Below are positions 1 through 27,246 of a stretch of 27,246 bases of DNA, piece by piece. This DNA comes from Patescibacteria group bacterium (lineage in GTDB: Bacteria > Patescibacteriota > Minisyncoccia > CAIUEV01 > JAHKAQ01). The translations under genes and the position numbers were made by a program. The DNA lies in contig JAHKAQ010000083.1 in assembly GCA_018825765.1 (NCBI GenBank), positions 1 to 27,246 of the forward strand, written 5' to 3'. The notes under the pieces were generated by a model that worked only from the letters and a program-made list of their open reading frames with translations, did no database searches and was not told the DNA's origin. How positions within the stretch are numbered: the stretch's first letter is position 1; the number at the start of each line of letters is the position of its first letter.

Positions 1-205
<205 letters not shown>

Positions 206-18583: not shown

Positions 18584-19651
18584 ATGCCGGCTAAATCCAC
18601 CATGCAAAACCTTAAAAAACGCATTGACCAGCGGCTAAAGCTGTATTTCCAAAAAGAAATACAAAAAGCGGCCGAATTAGACCAAACATTCAGGGAGGCT
18701 ACCAAAATGGTGGCTGAATTTACTCTTAGCGGGGGCAAGCGGGTGCGAGCCGCCCTTATGTATTATGGCTATCTGGCCGGCGGCGGACGAAAAACAAACG
18801 CTATTCTTAACGCCTCTTTGTCAATGGAGCTGGTCCATAGCTTTTTAATTATCCACGATGATATCATCGACAACGACGAAGTAAGAAGAGGCAATCCCAC
18901 CCTTCACCGCCGATACCAAAAATTATTCCAACACTTAAAACTGCAAGAATCAGAAAATCTAGGCCGTTCCCTGGCCATGCTTTGCGGCGATACTGCCTAT
19001 ACCATGGCCAATCAAATCCTCTGTCAAAGCGACTTTGACGATAAACTAAAAATAAAAGCCATTGAATATTTCCAAAAAACCCTGGACCATACTTACGCCG
19101 GAGAAATTATGGAAATCATCAACCAGGCCTCGAAAAAAAACATCGACAGTAAAAAGGCTATTAAAATTTATAAATACAAAACAGCGAAATACACTATTGA
19201 AGGTCCGCTCACAATCGGCAGCATCCTGGCCGGCGCCAATCAAACGATTATTAACGCCCTTAAAGAATATTCGATATTACTTGGAGTCGCTTTTCAAATA
19301 AACGACGATCTTTTAGGAATCTACGGCAATCCCAATCAAATCGGCAAAGATATTGGCTCTGATCTAAGAGAAGGCAAGAAAACTTTATTACTAATAAAAA
19401 CACTTGAAAAAGCCAGTAATCCGGAAAAAAAACTAATAAAATCAATCCTGGGTAATAAAAAAATAACCGCGCGCAACATCAAGCGCTTTGGACAAATCGC
19501 CCAAAAAACCGGCGCTCTTTCTTACTGCGAAAGCCTGGCTAACAACTTATCAGTAAGAGCCAAGGAAATTATTCTTAATTCCGAAATATCCGGCCTGGCG
19601 CGCGACTTTTTCCTGGAAAGCGCCAACTACATTATTGAAAGTAAGCGATGA
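18584..19651 (+). CDS. Trans-polyprenyl diphosphate synthase (type I GGPP-synthase-like)
   Basis: GGKRVR, FARM HSFLIIHDDIIDNDEVRRG, YKTAKYT, SARM FQINDDLLG, GSDLREGKKT. Confidence 0.92.
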   Translation: MPAKSTMQNLKKRIDQRLKLYFQKEIQKAAELDQTFREATKMVAEFTLSGGKRVRAALMYYGYLAGGGRKTNAILNASLSMELVHSFLIIHDDIIDNDEVRRGNPTLHRRYQKLFQHLKLQESENLGRSLAMLCGDTAYTMANQILCQSDFDDKLKIKAIEYFQKTLDHTYAGEIMEIINQASKKNIDSKKAIKIYKYKTAKYTIEGPLTIGSILAGANQTIINALKEYSILLGVAFQINDDLLGIYGNPNQIGKDIGSDLREGKKTLLLIKTLEKASNPEKKLIKSILGNKKITARNIKRFGQIAQKTGALSYCESLANNLSVRAKEIILNSEISGLARDFFLESANYIIESKR

Positions 19652-20505
19652 AAATAATCCTCAGCCGACCCGCCGGCTTCTGCGCCGGCGTCCAAAGAGC
19701 CTATGATCTCATAAAAAACAATTACGCCCGAACCCAAAAACCCGTATACATCTTAGGCCGGCTGGTTCACAATACTCACATCATTCGCCGGCTCAAAAAA
19801 TGGGGGATAAAGACCATATCTAATCCTTATGGAATAAAAAAAGGCACTGTCATTATTCCAAGCCACGGATTTGACCCTAAAATTACCGCCCTTTTAAAAT
19901 CCAAAAAGATAAAGATCATCAACACGACCTGTCCCAAAGTTTCACAAGTCATGGCTAAGGCCCGTCTCTTAAAAAAACAATCAAAAACTATTCTCATTTT
20001 TGGGGATAAAAGCCACCCTGAAGTAAAAGCCATTAACCAGGCCGTCAACAATCAGGGTCTTGTCTTCTCAAATATAAAAGAATTACAAACTTTTCTAAAT
20101 ACAAAAATCGCCAAAAATCAGCGATTAAGCCTAATTTCCCAAACAACCCAGAACATTGATCACTTGAAAAGAATAAAAGAAATTCTTAGCGCTAAGACTC
20201 CCGGGGTTCAAGTTTTTAACACAATTTGTCCAGCCACCCACATTCGCCAGAATCAAGCCAAAAAATTAGCTAAAAAAGCTGACGTCATGCTTGTTATAGG
20301 CTCCCCAATCAGCGCCAATTCAAACCGGCTCTTCCAAATATGTAAAAAAAACAATTCCCGCGCCTTTTTTGTTGACAAAGCCGCCCAAATTAAGAAACAA
20401 TGGTTTAACGCTAAAGACGTTGTGGGAATAAGCACTGGCGCCTCCACGCCCCAAAATATAATAAAACAAATTATTAAAAAATTAAAAACATGCAAAAGCT
20501 CCTAA
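19648..20505 (+). CDS. ispH: 4-hydroxy-3-methylbut-2-enyl diphosphate reductase
   Basis: Three Fe-S cysteines (GFCAGV, TTCPKV, TICPAT) plus VHN, PSHG, HPEV, SQTT, SANSNRL and GASTP. Confidence 0.96.
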   Translation: MKIILSRPAGFCAGVQRAYDLIKNNYARTQKPVYILGRLVHNTHIIRRLKKWGIKTISNPYGIKKGTVIIPSHGFDPKITALLKSKKIKIINTTCPKVSQVMAKARLLKKQSKTILIFGDKSHPEVKAINQAVNNQGLVFSNIKELQTFLNTKIAKNQRLSLISQTTQNIDHLKRIKEILSAKTPGVQVFNTICPATHIRQNQAKKLAKKADVMLVIGSPISANSNRLFQICKKNNSRAFFVDKAAQIKKQWFNAKDVVGISTGASTPQNIIKQIIKKLKTCKSS

Positions 20506-21068
20506 ACTCTATTATTTTAAAAAATCAAAAATACGAAAAGCATAGAGAATCAGCCTTTATCCTGGCGCGATCCATTCAAAAGAACTCAAAAATGACTATC
20601 AGCCGCCTGCATTACGAAGATAACCAGCAAGCCGAAAAACTGCTCAAAGAAAACAAAAAAATGCTTAATCAACTTCTGGCCCTGCTCCCCAAAACCCCCA
20701 AGTTAAAATTTGAAGGTTTTATGCGCGAAGCCTTTGAAGAATTAACCGAGGCTTTATTATTTTTTAATTTTCAAACAAAAAATTCAGTCTCACTAGATCC
20801 CACTGATCTCAAGCAATTATCCCATGACTCTGATATTCTTATCGGCGGACTTTGCGATTTTACCGGAGAATTAACCAGAAAGGCAATCAGGCGCGCAAAA
20901 AAAAATAACAACCAGGAAATTAAAAAATATTCCCTTACTATCAACCAGATCGTAGAGCAATTACTAAAATTAAATCTTTCCGGCTATCTTCGCACCAAAT
21001 TCGACCAGGCCAAGAGAAACGCTCAAAAACTGGAACTTATCCTTTATGAGCAGAGAATAAGAAGTTAA
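20490..21068 (+). CDS. Translin/TRAX-family protein (C3PO-like), putative endoribonuclease
   Basis: RE..F.LARSI.KNSK..I..LH, AFEELTEA, GGLCDFTGELTR and LRTKFD...QKLE.ILYE match the helical pattern of the translin family. Confidence 0.85.
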   Translation: MQKLLNSIILKNQKYEKHRESAFILARSIQKNSKMTISRLHYEDNQQAEKLLKENKKMLNQLLALLPKTPKLKFEGFMREAFEELTEALLFFNFQTKNSVSLDPTDLKQLSHDSDILIGGLCDFTGELTRKAIRRAKKNNNQEIKKYSLTINQIVEQLLKLNLSGYLRTKFDQAKRNAQKLELILYEQRIRS

Positions 21069-21073
21069 TCCTT

Positions 21074-21784
21074 ATGAATATCGCTATTATTTGCGCGGCC
21101 GGAAGCGGCAAACGCCTAAAACGAAAAATTCCCAAAGCTTTGATTTCGCTTAATAAAAGGCCGATTTTTATTCATTGCCTTAAATCTTTTTTAAAACCCC
21201 AAAGTAGTATTGATCGAATTTTAATCATGGCGCCCAAATCTCACCTTAAAAAATTCTTCCAGCTGGTAAAAAAACAATTAACTAAAAAACAACAAGGAAA
21301 AATCATAGATATAATCCCCGGCGGCCAAGAACGGCAATTTTCAGTCAAAACCGGCCTGGAATACCTGAATAAAATAAAAACCAATCCTAATTCTCCGGTT
21401 CTGGTTCATAACGCGGCCAATATTTTCGTAAGCCCCGGAGACATTTTAGCCTGTCTTAAAGTTATAAAAAGAAACCAGGCCGCGGCCGTGGCTAAGCCCT
21501 GTCCTGACACTTTAAGGATAATCAACAAAAAATTAGAACCAATTAAAAAATTAAACCGCGAAATCATCTGGTGCATGCAAACTCCCCAGGGCGCCGCCTT
21601 TAAAATTTTAAAAAAGGCCCATAAAAAAGCAAAAAAAGAAAATTACCTGGGAACTGACGAATTAGAGCTCATTCAACGCATAAAATATCCGGCTAAAATC
21701 ATTCCTTCAAGCGGACCTAACTTTAAGATTACCTATCCCCAGGACCTTATCATCGCTCAAGCTCTGTTAAAATCTCACGCTTAA
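21074..21784 (+). CDS. ispD: 2-C-methyl-D-erythritol 4-phosphate cytidylyltransferase
   Basis: AAGSGKR...PK, GGQERQFSV, VLVHNAA, QTPQG, TDE, NFKITYPQDL; MEP operon context. Confidence 0.9.
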   Translation: MNIAIICAAGSGKRLKRKIPKALISLNKRPIFIHCLKSFLKPQSSIDRILIMAPKSHLKKFFQLVKKQLTKKQQGKIIDIIPGGQERQFSVKTGLEYLNKIKTNPNSPVLVHNAANIFVSPGDILACLKVIKRNQAAAVAKPCPDTLRIINKKLEPIKKLNREIIWCMQTPQGAAFKILKKAHKKAKKENYLGTDELELIQRIKYPAKIIPSSGPNFKITYPQDLIIAQALLKSHA

Positions 21785-21792
21785 AAACTGTC

Positions 21793-23613
21793 ATGCTCCA
21801 AAGAATAAAAACCCCAAAAGATTTAAAAAAAATCCCTGATTCCAAATTACCTGAACTTTGCCAGGAAATTCGTCGTTTTATTTTGAAAAATATTTCAAAA
21901 ACCGGCGGCCATCTAGCCTCAAATTTAGGCGTGGTAGAACTTACCATCGCTCTGCACAAACACCTGGACTGCCCTAAAGACCAGATTATCTGGGACGTGG
22001 GCCATCAAAGCTATGTGCACAAAATCCTTACCGGCCGTCAAAAAAAATTCCGCCAATTAAGACAACTTGGCGGTATTAGCGGATTTCCCAAAAGAGAGGA
22101 AAGTCCTTATGATGTTTTTGGCACTGGCCACGCCAGCACTTCAATTTCCGCGGCCATGGGCCTGGCTGAAGCCCGTAAAAAAAACAAACAAAAAACCCCG
22201 CGGATTGTAGCCGTGATAGGGGATGGAGCTTTTACCGGCGGCATCGCCCTGGAGGCCATAAACCAGATTGGCTATCTGCAAACTCCGGTAACCATAGTTT
22301 TAAACGACAATCGAATGTCTATCGCTCCCAATGTCGGAGCCCTGTCCCGCTACACTAAAAGAATCGAAGAAACCCAAGTCTACAAAAGAGCCAAGAAAGC
22401 TATTTACCTATTATCAAGAGATAAAACCTCAAAAACAAAAAAAAACCTGATAAACCTTCAAACCCTTAAGCGAGCCTTTAAAGAAGTGGGCACTCCCGGA
22501 CTTTTATTTGAAAAATTAGGCATAAATTATTTAGGACCGGTGGATGGGCACAATATTTCCCGAATCATTGAAGCTCTTAAAAGAGCGCGAAAGATTAACG
22601 GCCCGGTTCTGATTCATGTCCGCACTAAAAAAGGCATGGGCTATAAATTCGCCGAAAATCAAGCCGATAAATATCACGGGGTCCTGCCTTTTTCCTTAAA
22701 AACCGGCGCCTGCCTCTATTCTTCAGACCCGATTTCCTTTTCTCAAAGCTTTGGCCAAAAACTTCTCCAGTTAGGCCGAAAAAACAAAAAAATCATCGCC
22801 ATCACCTGCGCCATGCCTGACGGCACAGGCTTAAATCACTTTGCCAATGAACTGCCTGAACAATTTTATGACACGGGCATAACCGAACAGCACGCCGTAA
22901 CCTTCGCCGCCGGCCTGGCCGCGGCCGGAAAAAAACCCGTGGTAGCCATTTATTCCAGCTTCCTTCAACGCTCTTGCGATCAAATAATCCATGACGTCTG
23001 CCTGCAAAATTTACCAGTTATTTTCGCTATTGACCGCGCCGGCCTGGCCGGCGAAGATGGCCCCACCCATCATGGAGTATTTGACATAAGCCTGCTCCGC
23101 CCCATTCCCAATCTGATAATTATGGCGCCTAAAGACAATCCAGAACTTAAAGCCATGCTGGAACTGGCCCTGAAACTTAATCGACCGGTCGCTATCCGCT
23201 ATCCTCGCGGCTCCGGACAATCCTTAAAATTGCCAGTCTGGTGCGTTCCTCAAAAAACAGCCTTAAAAAAAGGAAAATCCCAAATAATAAACACCGGGAA
23301 AGACACAGTCATTATTTCAGTTGGCAATCAGCTCTGCCGGGCCATAACACTGGGCCGGCGCCGCAAAGTAAAACCCTCAATCATCAACGCCCGCTTCATA
23401 AAGCCCATTGATCCCGAAATCATCGCTTTCATTAAAAAAACCGGCCAGGCCACAATAATCGAGGAAAACGCGATCACCGGCGGTTTCGGCAGTGCTGTCC
23501 TGGAACAATTAGCTAAAAAAAATATCAACGCCCGGGTTAAACTCATGGGTATCGGCGACCAGTTCGTGGAACAAGGAACAGTCAATGAATTACAAAAAAA
23601 ATATCTCAAATGA
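21793..23613 (+). CDS. dxs: 1-deoxy-D-xylulose-5-phosphate synthase
   Basis: GGHLASNLGVVEL, DVGHQSYVHK, GHASTSIS, TPP motif GDGAFTGG...LNDN, GPVDGHN, DRAGLAGEDGPTHHG, IRYPRG. Confidence 0.97.
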   Translation: MLQRIKTPKDLKKIPDSKLPELCQEIRRFILKNISKTGGHLASNLGVVELTIALHKHLDCPKDQIIWDVGHQSYVHKILTGRQKKFRQLRQLGGISGFPKREESPYDVFGTGHASTSISAAMGLAEARKKNKQKTPRIVAVIGDGAFTGGIALEAINQIGYLQTPVTIVLNDNRMSIAPNVGALSRYTKRIEETQVYKRAKKAIYLLSRDKTSKTKKNLINLQTLKRAFKEVGTPGLLFEKLGINYLGPVDGHNISRIIEALKRARKINGPVLIHVRTKKGMGYKFAENQADKYHGVLPFSLKTGACLYSSDPISFSQSFGQKLLQLGRKNKKIIAITCAMPDGTGLNHFANELPEQFYDTGITEQHAVTFAAGLAAAGKKPVVAIYSSFLQRSCDQIIHDVCLQNLPVIFAIDRAGLAGEDGPTHHGVFDISLLRPIPNLIIMAPKDNPELKAMLELALKLNRPVAIRYPRGSGQSLKLPVWCVPQKTALKKGKSQIINTGKDTVIISVGNQLCRAITLGRRRKVKPSIINARFIKPIDPEIIAFIKKTGQATIIEENAITGGFGSAVLEQLAKKNINARVKLMGIGDQFVEQGTVNELQKKYLK

Positions 23614-24338
23614 AAATAACCCCTATAAAAACCAGAATCATCAATCCTCCCCGGGATAATATATATAAAATAATTGATCAATTCTGCCCCAAGCTTGTAA
23701 AAGGAGATGTTTTGGTTATTACCTCTAAAATAATTTCCATTCATCAGGGCCGCTGTTTGCCTGTTGATTCAGTAAAAAGCAAAGACAAGCTAATAAAAAG
23801 ACAGGCCGATCTGTTCATCTCCAGAAAAAAATCTCCAGGCCAACACGTAATTCTTACCCTCAAAAACAACACCTTAATTCCTTCAGCCGGCATCGACCAA
23901 AGCAACGCCCGCGGCCACTATATTCTCTGGCCTGAAAAACCCTACCAACAGGCCAAAAAAATCTGCCAGTATCTAAGAAAAAAATTTCACACCCCAAAGA
24001 TAGCCGTAATCATCACAGACAGCCACAGCACTCCTCTCCGTTACGGCGTGCTGGGAATATCCATCGGCTTTTTTGGCCTTTACCCCTTAAAAGACTATCG
24101 CGGGGAAAAAGACATCTTTAAAAAACCCCTGAAGTCCTCGCAAGCGAACATTATTGACGCCTTAGCCGCGGCCGCTACTCTGGTAATAGGCGAAAGCGAC
24201 CAGAAAACTCCCATGGCCCTGATTCAGGGAGCAAAATTTTTACGATTCACCAACAAAACAAACAAAAATGACCTGCTGGTTCCTCCCAAAAAAGACATTT
24301 TCTACCCCCTGCTTAAAACATTTTTTAAAAAACCCTAA
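23610..24338 (+). CDS. CofE-family gamma-glutamyl ligase (F420-0 ligase-like / chlamydial FolC2-type folylpolyglutamate synthase)
   Basis: ITSKIISIHQG, PSAGIDQSN, ITDSHSTPLRYG, DYRGEKDIF, NIIDALAAAATLVIGESDQKTP. Confidence 0.85.
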   Translation: MKITPIKTRIINPPRDNIYKIIDQFCPKLVKGDVLVITSKIISIHQGRCLPVDSVKSKDKLIKRQADLFISRKKSPGQHVILTLKNNTLIPSAGIDQSNARGHYILWPEKPYQQAKKICQYLRKKFHTPKIAVIITDSHSTPLRYGVLGISIGFFGLYPLKDYRGEKDIFKKPLKSSQANIIDALAAAATLVIGESDQKTPMALIQGAKFLRFTNKTNKNDLLVPPKKDIFYPLLKTFFKKP

Positions 24339-24342
24339 AATT

Positions 24343-24960
24343 ATGCCGCTTAATTTCTTATTATTTTCCGGCCAAAAAAAAAGACGCCCTGATAGACCGG
24401 AAAAACAAAAAAAAATAATCCTGATAAAAAATAAAAAAATTCCCTACACTTTAAAGCGCAGTTATCGGGCTCGCCATTTAAGTATCTCCATAAACAGCGC
24501 TGGAAAAATAAGCGCCACCTTGCCAAACTCTATCAGCCTCAGTAAACTTGAAGGCTTTATGCAAAGCCGGTCGAATTGGATTCAAAGAACCGTGTCCCGC
24601 GTCACCCGGACCCCTCCAAGCCTGCTGGAGCAGGGAACTCGCGATCAATTTCTAAAATCCAAATCCGTCGCCCGCCGCCTGGTTCTGGCAAAAATCCGCC
24701 ACTTTAATAAATATTATCAATTCCAGATAAACCGCGTCTTTATCCGCGATCAAAAAAGCCGTTGGGGCAGTTGTTCAGCCAAAAAAAATCTTAATTTTAA
24801 CTGGCGCGTTGTCTTTCTTGGCCAAAAACACCTTGATTATCTCATAGTCCATGAACTCTGCCATTTAGAACAACTGAATCATTCCCCAAAATTCTGGCAG
24901 TTAGTCGCCAAAACAATCCCTCAATTCAAACAAACAAGAAAAGAGATGCGTCAACTTTAA
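24343..24960 (+). CDS. YgjP/DUF45 (M48-like, zincin-motif) metal-dependent hydrolase
   Basis: RDQKSRWGSCS, LNFNWR, YLIVHELCHL (HExxH), NHSPKFW. ATG 24343 is preferred over the overlapping track start 24268. Confidence 0.88.
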   Translation: MPLNFLLFSGQKKRRPDRPEKQKKIILIKNKKIPYTLKRSYRARHLSISINSAGKISATLPNSISLSKLEGFMQSRSNWIQRTVSRVTRTPPSLLEQGTRDQFLKSKSVARRLVLAKIRHFNKYYQFQINRVFIRDQKSRWGSCSAKKNLNFNWRVVFLGQKHLDYLIVHELCHLEQLNHSPKFWQLVAKTIPQFKQTRKEMRQL

Positions 24961-24975
24961 TAATTTTTCACTAAT

Positions 24976-26169
24976 ATGAAAAAAATAGCCATTCTTGGCT
25001 CCACCGGATCAGTCGGCACCCAAGCGCTTCAAATAATAAAACAACATCCCAGTAAATTTAAGATTATCGGGCTTACGGCCAACACCAACACGCAAGCCAT
25101 GTTGGCTCAAATAAAAACTTTCCATCCCCAGGCCGTGGCCATGATGAATAAAGTTTCGGCCCGGGAATTAACCCGAAAAATAAAAACCCTGGACCGCCGA
25201 TACTCCAGAATAAAAATCTACACCGGCCTTCCCGGCCTTGTAAAAATCGCTACTCTCAACACAGCAGACATTATCCTGACTTCAGTTGTAGGCTCAATCG
25301 GCATTGTTCCTACCTTTGAAGCCATAAAAAAATCAAAAACCATCGCTCTCGCCAATAAAGAAACCCTGGTGGCCGCCGGTCAAATAATCATGCCGGCCGC
25401 GAAAAAATATAACGCAAAAATTATCCCGGTTGACTCGGAACATTCGGCTATTTTCCAGTGCCTTGTGGGAGAAAATCCCCAAAATATCAAAAACCTTATT
25501 CTAACCTGCAGTGGCGGGCCGTTTCGAAAAACACCGCCCAGCCGGCTAAAAAAAGTCACCCTAAAGCAGGCACTCAATCACCCCAGCTGGAAAATGGGCG
25601 GAAAAATTACCATTGACTCCGCGACTCTCATGAATAAAGGCCTGGAAGTGATTGAAGCCCACTGGCTTTTTGGCCTGCCGTATGAGAATATAAAAGTAGT
25701 GGTTCATCCTCAAAGCCTTGTCCATTCTATGGTTGAATTCAGGGATGGCTCCTTAAAGGCCCAAATCAGCCAGCCTTCCATGAGTATCCCTATTCAGCTC
25801 GCTTTTTCTTTTCCCCAAAGGCTTAAAAACAAAAAAATCCCGCGCCTGGACCTCTCAAGAAAAACCAGCGTCAATCAATTAAATCAGATGACTTTTGAAA
25901 AACCCGACTTTAAAAAATTCCCCTGCCTGAATCTGGCCTATAAAGCCGGCCGCCTGGGCGGAACTCTGCCGGCCGCCCTGAACGCGGCCAATGAAACAGC
26001 CGTTCAATACTTTTTACAGGGAAAAATAAAATATCTTGATATCGCGAACGTGATAAAAAAAATTATCAAAAAAAATAAACAAGTTAAAAACCCGAACTTA
26101 TCATGTATCCTGGAAACAGACAAAAAGGTAAAAGAGCAAACCAGGCAATTGCTTGATTCTCTCTGCTAA
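24976..26169 (+). CDS. dxr: 1-deoxy-D-xylulose-5-phosphate reductoisomerase (IspC)
   Basis: ILGSTGSVG, LANKETLV, PVDSEHSAIFQ, SGGPFR, HPSWKMGGKITIDSATLMNKGLEVIEA, NAANE. Confidence 0.98.
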   Translation: MKKIAILGSTGSVGTQALQIIKQHPSKFKIIGLTANTNTQAMLAQIKTFHPQAVAMMNKVSARELTRKIKTLDRRYSRIKIYTGLPGLVKIATLNTADIILTSVVGSIGIVPTFEAIKKSKTIALANKETLVAAGQIIMPAAKKYNAKIIPVDSEHSAIFQCLVGENPQNIKNLILTCSGGPFRKTPPSRLKKVTLKQALNHPSWKMGGKITIDSATLMNKGLEVIEAHWLFGLPYENIKVVVHPQSLVHSMVEFRDGSLKAQISQPSMSIPIQLAFSFPQRLKNKKIPRLDLSRKTSVNQLNQMTFEKPDFKKFPCLNLAYKAGRLGGTLPAALNAANETAVQYFLQGKIKYLDIANVIKKIIKKNKQVKNPNLSCILETDKKVKEQTRQLLDSLC

Positions 26170-26185
26170 TCATTTTTATTTTCTA

Positions 26186-26668
26186 ATGTTTAAAATCGGC
26201 CTTGGCCAAGATTCCCACGCCTTCACTGCTCAACCCAAACCGCTGGTATTGGGCGGGGTTATTATCAAAAACGCGCCCGGACTTAAAGGAAACAGCGACT
26301 GTGATGTAATTCTTCACGCCATTTGCAACGCCTTTGATATCGCGGCTCAAAAAGGATCAATCGCCGTCTATTCCGACCCTATGTGCCTAAAAAAAGGAAC
26401 AAACAACAGCGCCCAATACTTAAAACACGTCCAAAAAGCCGCGGCCAAAAAAAAATATAAAGCCATAAGCGCGAGCATCTCTATCGAAGCTAGGAAACCA
26501 AAACTCGAACCGGATTCAAAAGCCATTAAAGCCCGGCTGGCCCGGCTGCTTCAAATCCCCAAAGAAAACATAGGCTTAACCTTCACTTCAGGTGAAGGTC
26601 TTACCAGTTTTGGCCAAGGGCAGGGGATAATGGCCACGGCCCTTGTTGTTTTTTCTAAAATCACCTGA
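26186..26668 (+). CDS. ispF: 2-C-methyl-D-erythritol 2,4-cyclodiphosphate synthase
   Basis: IGLGQDSH, LVLGGV, GNSDCDVILHAICNA, TSGEGLTSFGQGQGI. ATG 26186 (MFKIG) is preferred over the track start 26153. Confidence 0.93.
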   Translation: MFKIGLGQDSHAFTAQPKPLVLGGVIIKNAPGLKGNSDCDVILHAICNAFDIAAQKGSIAVYSDPMCLKKGTNNSAQYLKHVQKAAAKKKYKAISASISIEARKPKLEPDSKAIKARLARLLQIPKENIGLTFTSGEGLTSFGQGQGIMATALVVFSKIT

Positions 26669-26672
26669 CTCT

Positions 26673-27246
26673 ATGCCCCAAATCATCTCTCAAAAACCAA
26701 ACCAGATTAGTCTCAAGGCCTGGGCCAAAATAAACCTTACCCTGGAAGTCCTTAAAAAAAGAAAAGACAGCTTTCATGAAATTCGCTCCATAATCACTCC
26801 TATTCCCTTATTCGATCTCATCAAAGTTAAACTTGTTTTCCCTAAAAAAAACACAACCACCGCTCCTCCTGAACCTAAGATCATTATAACCACAAACAAC
26901 AAACTGCTTGCCCGCGAGAAAAAAAATAACTGCTACAAAGCGGCTCAATTTATCACAAGCCGCCTGCCAAAAAATAAGATTCCCGCTTCCATAAAAATTC
27001 ACCTGGAAAAAAACATCCCGCTAGCCGGAGGCCTGGGTGGTTCAAGCGCTGACACCGCGGCCGTAATTATCGCTTTTGATAAACTATTTTCTCTTAAGCT
27101 TTCAAAACAAGAACAATTAAAAATTCTAGCTCGCTTTTCCAGTGAAGCCGCGTCTCTGCTTCCTGGCGTGATAATAACCCGGGGCAGGGGAGAAACAGCC
27201 CGAGAAATCACCCAAAAACCGCTTAAGCTTCCGCTCGTTTTAATAA
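26673..27246 (+). CDS. ispE: 4-diphosphocytidyl-2-C-methyl-D-erythritol kinase, 5' part (runs off the window; absent from the ORF track)
   Basis: Hand translation from ATG 26673 is open to the window end: MPQIISQKPNQISLKAWAKINLTLEVLKKRKDSFHEIRS...NNCYKAA...LEKNIPLAGGLGGSSADTAAV...TRGRGE. This has the GHMP-kinase loop and IspE N-terminal motifs. Confidence 0.92.
   Translation, partial: MPQIISQKPNQISLKAWAKINLTLEVLKKRKDSFHEIRSIITPIPLFDLIKVKLVFPKKNTTTAPPEPKIIITTNNKLLAREKKNNCYKAAQFITSRLPKNKIPASIKIHLEKNIPLAGGLGGSSADTAAVIIAFDKLFSLKLSKQEQLKILARFSSEAASLLPGVIITRGRGETAREITQKPLKLPLVLI

Follow-up and report, generated by a model that had tools for sequence, protein, structure and literature searches.

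The closest known single-subunit relatives of the protein analysed here are archaeal C3PO nucleases. NeC3PO of Nanoarchaeum equitans (NEQ131 or NeTrax; PDB 5JR9, 5JRC and 5JRE) is the product of a single gene and about 190 amino acids long, and its Glu82, Glu85, Asp117 and Glu121 hold two metal ions (Zhang et al., PMC5100593). Cleavage is greatly weakened in the E82Q, D117N and E121Q variants, substrate binding involves Ser26, Lys34 and Arg124, and the closed octamer contains the inter-subunit salt bridges Glu121-Arg163 and Arg124-Asp167 (PMC5100593). AfC3PO of Archaeoglobus fulgidus (AfTRAX; PDB 3ZC0 and 3ZC1) is a homo-octameric TRAX-like nuclease as well. Eukaryotic C3PO (PDB 3PJA, 3AXJ and 3RIU) has the same fold and the same TRAX tetrad, which in human TRAX is Glu123/Glu126/Asp193/Glu197 (quoted in PMC5100593), but it is a translin6:TRAX2 hetero-octamer: its two subunits differ, and catalysis is confined to TRAX.

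Prokaryotic genes of the translin superfamily have been surveyed (Gupta, Kale & Kumar 2012, J Mol Evol 75:155, as cited in PMC5424206 and PMC5100593), Chloroflexi have been named as a bacterial phylum that carries them (PMC5100593), and an archaeal TRAX-SepRS operon has been proposed in the literature. Our search of the searchable literature returned no paper on CPR translins, Chloroflexi being the only bacteria mentioned, and no assigned physiological role for any bacterial TRAX/C3PO-like protein. Here we describe a translin-family gene that sits between ispH and ispD in a 27,246-nucleotide stretch (the window) of the genome of an ultra-small groundwater bacterium belonging to the Patescibacteria. 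With a probability of roughly two in three, it encodes a single-subunit, archaeal-type C3PO/TRAX-like accessory nuclease that is an inherited passenger among the MEP genes.

Family, fold and active-site residues

The gene is an ATG-start ORF of 192 codons at 20490..21068 (+ strand), and its product was classified as TRAX-like and archaeal C3PO-type using Pfam, PDB sequences, AlphaFold2 and Foldseek. It matches Pfam PF01997 (Translin) at E 4.2e-15; the score of 56.7 bits exceeds the cut-off of 25.9, and the match spans profile positions 3-204 of 205. A Pfam scan of the whole host genome (868 kb, 124 contigs, 93% complete) returned the same single translin match, and hence one gene, where eukaryotic C3PO draws on two. 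A single-sequence search of PDB sequences retrieved NEQ131 (NeC3PO, 5jr9) at E 2.5e-6 and AfTRAX (3zc1) at E 3e-4. When a 12-sequence family profile was used, the values were 4.4e-18 for NeC3PO, 1.8e-17 for AfTRAX, 5e-13 for fly TRAX and 1.5e-11 for human TRAX, with translins reaching only about 1e-5. Because TRAX outscores translin here by many orders of magnitude, the protein belongs on the TRAX side of the superfamily, as a sequence-only reading of the same DNA had proposed. NCBIfam PRK14562 models ('haloacid dehalogenase superfamily protein') gave sub-threshold matches only and were set aside; in our reading, archaeal translin homologues have been misnamed in these models.

An AlphaFold2 model, for which 109 homologues were used, is all-helical (pLDDT 97.6, pTM 0.92), in keeping with the seven-helix-type subunit of the superfamily. 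Foldseek comparison with the PDB placed NeC3PO chains first (TM 0.85-0.88, rmsd 2.0 Å, 185 columns, 23% identity) and AfC3PO next (TM 0.83-0.87), followed by translin and TRAX chains; the best 50 matches listed were all C3PO, TRAX or translin chains (TM 0.74-0.88), which confirms the translin family at the level of predicted structure. Given the profile E of 4e-18 and the Foldseek scores to NeC3PO, family membership is far beyond chance. NeC3PO, the best match by both sequence and fold, differs from the window protein in its archaeal rather than bacterial host and in that its octamer and activity are known, whereas those of the window protein are predicted. AfC3PO is more distant (~20% identity), with a longer alpha5-alpha6 region and an archaeal genomic context.

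The residues that define the NeC3PO active site were located in the window protein by HMMER alignment (PDB chain numbering of NeC3PO is offset by 34, the chain residues being E116, E119, D151, E155, R158, K68, R197 and D201). The first half of the metal-binding tetrad, E84 (20739-20741) and E87 (20748-20750), lies in the E-L-T-E codons at 20739..20750 (+) and aligns with NeC3PO E82 and E85. The second half, D123 (20856-20858) and E127 (20868-20870), aligns with D117 and E121 and lies in the D-F-T-G-E-L-T-R codons at 20856..20879 (+), together with R130, the counterpart of the substrate-binding and salt-bridge residue R124. K34 (20589..20591, +) aligns with the RNA-binding Lys34, and the R168-T-K170-F-D172 codons (20991..21005, +) align with the inter-subunit salt-bridge partners R163 and D167. 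All four metal ligands, Lys34, Arg124 and R163/D167 of NeC3PO thus have identical counterparts, and Ser26 is replaced by A26 in a small A/S/G column. The catalytic Asp of AfC3PO also aligns with D123: this column holds the Asp-to-Ala difference between entries 3zc1 and 3zc0 (the RNA crystal), in agreement with the mutation of D114 in AfC3PO crystallised with RNA (PMC5100593).

The motifs E83-E84-L-T-E87-A (20736-20753) and C-D123-F-T-G-E127-L (20853-20873), which the sequence-only reading had given as EELTEA and CDFTGEL, are read directly from the DNA, and its claim of an intact acidic tetrad holds against the experimentally defined metal ligands of NeC3PO. Across the 109 homologues K34, E84, D123, G126, E127, R130, R168, K170 and D172 are invariant, while conservation is 90% or more at E83 and E87. 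Judged by alignment, the protein has kept the residues that two-metal catalysis, binding of the substrate and closure of the octamer require, and these are under constraint. The prediction of an active, homo-oligomeric, Mg-dependent C3PO-like nuclease is well supported by these alignments and the model. As the model is of a monomer, the closed octamer draws indirect support from the conserved interface residues. Internal Met35 was ruled out as an alternative start, as conservation extends over residues 1-34, among them the invariant K34; because K34 lies upstream of Met35, the start at 20490 is the one that retains it.

Gene order in the MEP operon and its host family

The translin gene is embedded in an operon that extends from 18584 to past the window end. 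A polyprenyl synthase gene (pps; 18584-19651, +; Pfam polyprenyl_synt E 4.5e-55) overlaps ispH (19648-20505, +; Pfam LYTB E 2.7e-85) by 4 nt. The translin gene starts 16 nt inside the end of ispH and leaves a 5-nt gap to the start of ispD at 21074 (Pfam IspD E 1e-45), so that the geometry first described for it is borne out by the ORF coordinates. Pfam assigns the genes downstream (21074..27245, +) as ispD, dxs, CofE-like, YgjP-like metallopeptidase, dxr, ispF and ispE, the last open at its 3' end. Spacers in the operon range from -71 to +15 nt, and tight co-directional packing is the norm across the whole window, unrelated genes included; the 16-nt overlap with ispH therefore carries little functional information. 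Upstream of the operon, uvrB is transcribed divergently. Promoter- and terminator-like sites inside the operon and around the translin gene did not exceed shuffled expectation in number. Near-identical DNA is present in groundwater and biofilm DNA metagenomes; no RNA-seq run with this DNA was found, the matching runs being DNA metagenomes.

Two further features of the window were recorded. An Rfam scan found nothing near the translin gene, its single match being the 3' part of a bacterial 23S rRNA gene at window 1-192 (185 bits), which closes an rRNA operon. The CofE-like gene (F420-0:gamma-glutamyl ligase family, PF01996; window 23610-24338) lies between dxs and the YgjP-like gene.

Translin was found in three of the eight genomes of the Moranbacteria-type family (G000, G002 and G003); 33 genomes of other families in the class yielded none. 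The order in G002 and G003 is folD, pps, ispH, translin, ispD, dxs. Two metagenomic contigs that carry the closest homologues (P0004 and P0002, 49-51% identical) share the order parA, parB, relA, uvrB, pps, ispH, translin, ispD, with different genes downstream of ispD. The pps-ispH-translin-ispD core is thus kept in five diverged lineages (translin identity 40-55%) despite rearranged flanks, and this retention could reflect some selection for co-expression.

The remaining five of the eight family genomes carry ispH without translin, in the orders pps-ispH-ispD-dxs (G005), ispH-dxs (G007) and pps-ispH-YgjP (G001, G004 and G006). In a tree of 113 translins, all MEP-linked copies fall in one clade (SH-aLRT 99), which also takes in four near relatives that are identical in sequence or come without a known gene context and is nested among other Patescibacteria translins. 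In the ispH tree, translin-positive and translin-negative genomes are interleaved and at least three label changes are needed. The simplest history is a single old placement followed by repeated loss.

The YgjP-like metallopeptidase gene (PF01863; window 24268-24960) was found beside MEP genes in 3/3 translin-positive and 3/5 translin-negative family genomes examined. It lies directly 3' of ispH in G001, G004 and G006; outside the window it was recorded at loci L087, L088 and L090 and at L004:4894-5448 and L005:2844-3440. Within the Moranbacteria-type family, the link between YgjP and the MEP genes is more recurrent than that between translin and the MEP genes.

Translin neighbourhoods across the Patescibacteria

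We confirmed 290 translin loci among GTDB species genomes. The best 80 of these are almost all from Patescibacteria and have MEP genes nearby only at G002 and G003, which gives MEP neighbours in 3/81 best-hit loci when the window is counted. In an even sample of 400 Patescibacteria genomes, translin was present in 27 (~7%) and ispH in 36; both occur together only in G285, on different contigs, and ispH is absent from the other 26 of the 27 translin-positive genomes. The translin ORF was recovered in 26 of the 27 sampled loci, and no MEP gene lies within five genes of any of these 26. Patescibacteria commonly carry the family, and its presence here is largely ordinary. The earlier description of bacterial members as sparse is only half right, given the share of about 7% of sampled genomes and the 290 loci confirmed.

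Neighbourhoods differ by lineage. About half of the sampled loci have the order (MurG ...) translin, Mur ligase, bPH_2, DivIC and PpiC-type isomerase. A second pattern is shared by five loci (L095, L104, L110, L112 and L113), and at L110 Pfam identifies it as Lon, QueH, translin, NUDIX. At L101:5466-9301 (G274) the gene is placed in a heat-shock operon (HrcA, translin, GrpE, DnaK), one family has Wzy_C, translin, UvrD, and the gene before translin in the larger locus set is often that for a P-type ATPase, YceG or a PilB-type ATPase. No consistent neighbour partner was found across the phylum sample. Other bacterial translin-superfamily proteins (Chloroflexi; Pfam-labelled CPR) are likewise orphan genes in lineage-specific neighbourhoods, from which the window copy differs in belonging to a Moranbacteria-family subclade placed inside a MEP operon.

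The sequence-only reading had suggested that recurrent linkage to MEP genes would define an undescribed module. The neighbourhood survey instead confines the linkage to a single clade of one family. What joins these genes is a gene order inherited within one lineage, and the evidence does not support the module. Had the gene been stably tied to one pathway, this would have offered a way into the physiological role of bacterial TRAX proteins, but the survey shows no such tie: the translin gene moves between unrelated housekeeping operons lineage by lineage and is repeatedly lost. The locus also cautions that, in streamlined genomes, a gene's close fit into an operon says little about shared function. 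Its main value lies in a clean annotation, by sequence and model, of what appears to be a C3PO nuclease of archaeal type, active site intact, in a CPR genome.

Two side observations come from the surveyed loci. The context of QueH (a tRNA queuosine enzyme) and NUDIX, which recurs in several Patescibacteria families, would fit an RNA-related role. Many contigs with Patescibacteria-type translins (L008, L028, L030, L033, L036 and others) are titled 'uncultured Gammaproteobacteria bacterium' and look like mislabelled MAG records.

Proposed function and alternatives

The family genomes carry other ribonucleases whether or not they have translin. PNPase is present in all eight, with or without translin, and RNase Y in seven (it was not found in G007, which is 88% complete), while the RNB family (RNase R/II) was not found in any of the eight (88-99% complete). 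A role for translin as a replacement RNase was dropped, there being no RNase difference between translin-positive and translin-negative family genomes; the protein is not the sole RNase, nor does it visibly stand in for one that is missing. A defence-system reading was rejected, because PADLOC defence-system models gave no family match at E <= 0.01.

By analogy with NeC3PO and AfC3PO, the window protein would assemble into a closed homo-octamer. Two-metal (Mg2+/Mn2+) centres formed by E84, E87, D123 and E127 inside this shell would cut single-stranded nucleic acid, with two subunits at a time presenting two-metal sites in the hollow particle, as in the NeC3PO/AfC3PO mechanism. Short RNA fragments are the most likely substrate, and tRNA leaders and imported nucleic acid are further candidates. 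We infer oligomeric state, metal dependence, substrate and cellular role from these likenesses. The protein would be an accessory nuclease with a housekeeping role in some of the Patescibacteria. Its position between ispH and ispD would go back to a placement made long ago, in the ancestor of one Moranbacteria-type family, leaving it co-transcribed with isoprenoid synthesis genes but functionally untied from them. Eukaryotic C3PO acts in RISC activation and in tRNA processing, roles for which the window host has no counterpart pathway, and processing of MEP mRNA, tRNA or excised intron RNA by the translin protein, as had been suggested, is speculation.

NeC3PO cleaves ssDNA, dsDNA, ssRNA and dsRNA in vitro (PMC5100593). 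Because it cuts DNA too, an RNA substrate is an assumption, and a role in salvage or repair stays a live rival. The octamer would then degrade imported or damaged ssDNA or ssRNA for nucleotide salvage or DNA repair in hosts that are unable to make nucleotides. In some lineages translin directly follows a PilB/T2SSE-type ATPase (seven loci) or precedes UvrD, and the divergent uvrB upstream of the window operon points the same way; such neighbourhoods are, however, also lineage-specific, and no partner is consistent across the phylum. The protein carries no export signal, is predicted to be fully helical and soluble, and is accompanied by no defence or competence family match (PADLOC without match). 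We regard this explanation as unlikely, although it deserves to be kept in view.

An accessory nuclease untied from its neighbours is also to be weighed against a functional coupling to the MEP pathway, in which the nuclease would act on the long polycistronic MEP mRNA, by processing or destabilising it, or would adjust isoprenoid and cell-envelope synthesis post-transcriptionally. The conserved four-gene core, held in five diverged lineages while both flanks vary, the start/stop overlap with ispH and the 5-nt gap to ispD would all fit such coupling, and envelope genes (MurG, Mur ligase, DivIC, Wzy_C) often adjoin translin elsewhere. However, all MEP-linked copies form the single clade expected of one placement event, the family has lost translin at least two or three times but retained its MEP genes, and 26 of the 27 sampled translin-positive Patescibacteria lack ispH altogether. 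Intergenic spaces of 5-16 nt are too short for obvious processing signals, and packing is equally tight among unrelated genes of the window. We therefore consider the coupling very unlikely. The stronger version, that selection maintains the ispH-ispD placement and that the nuclease acts on MEP or envelope transcripts to co-regulate RNA turnover and lipid-carrier supply, is less probable still; if true, it would represent a bacterial, pathway-dedicated use of a TRAX nuclease.

Least credible is a non-catalytic, translin-like chaperone or scaffold that binds RNA or ssDNA without cleavage: the fold is common to human and mouse translin (Foldseek TM 0.82-0.88) and six of the eight identical subunits in homo-octameric archaeal C3PO are translin-like and non-cutting (PMC5100593), but the full acidic tetrad is under strong constraint in the 109 homologues, the sequence scores far better against TRAX than against translin, and the loss of the tetrad from the N-terminal domains of tandem relatives (45/45) provides the contrast expected under relaxed selection.

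These tandem relatives were seen among the profile hits, where two-translin-domain proteins of 344-691 aa account for 48 of the best 150 (P0027, P0029, P0031, P0042, P0067, P0081 and others). Those with a named source belong to microbial eukaryotes (Chattonella, Coscinodiscus, Didymoeca and Cymbomonas); the names were taken from the protein clusters, P0027 itself lying only on contigs of 2-3 kb. In the tandem proteins with exactly two domain hits (n = 45), the E-E-D-E tetrad is found in the C-terminal domain of 45/45 and in the N-terminal domain of 0/45. They look like a covalent pair of an inactive translin-like half and an active TRAX-like half, the active half resembling the prokaryotic type (about 190 bits against the CPR profile, 30% identity to the window protein).
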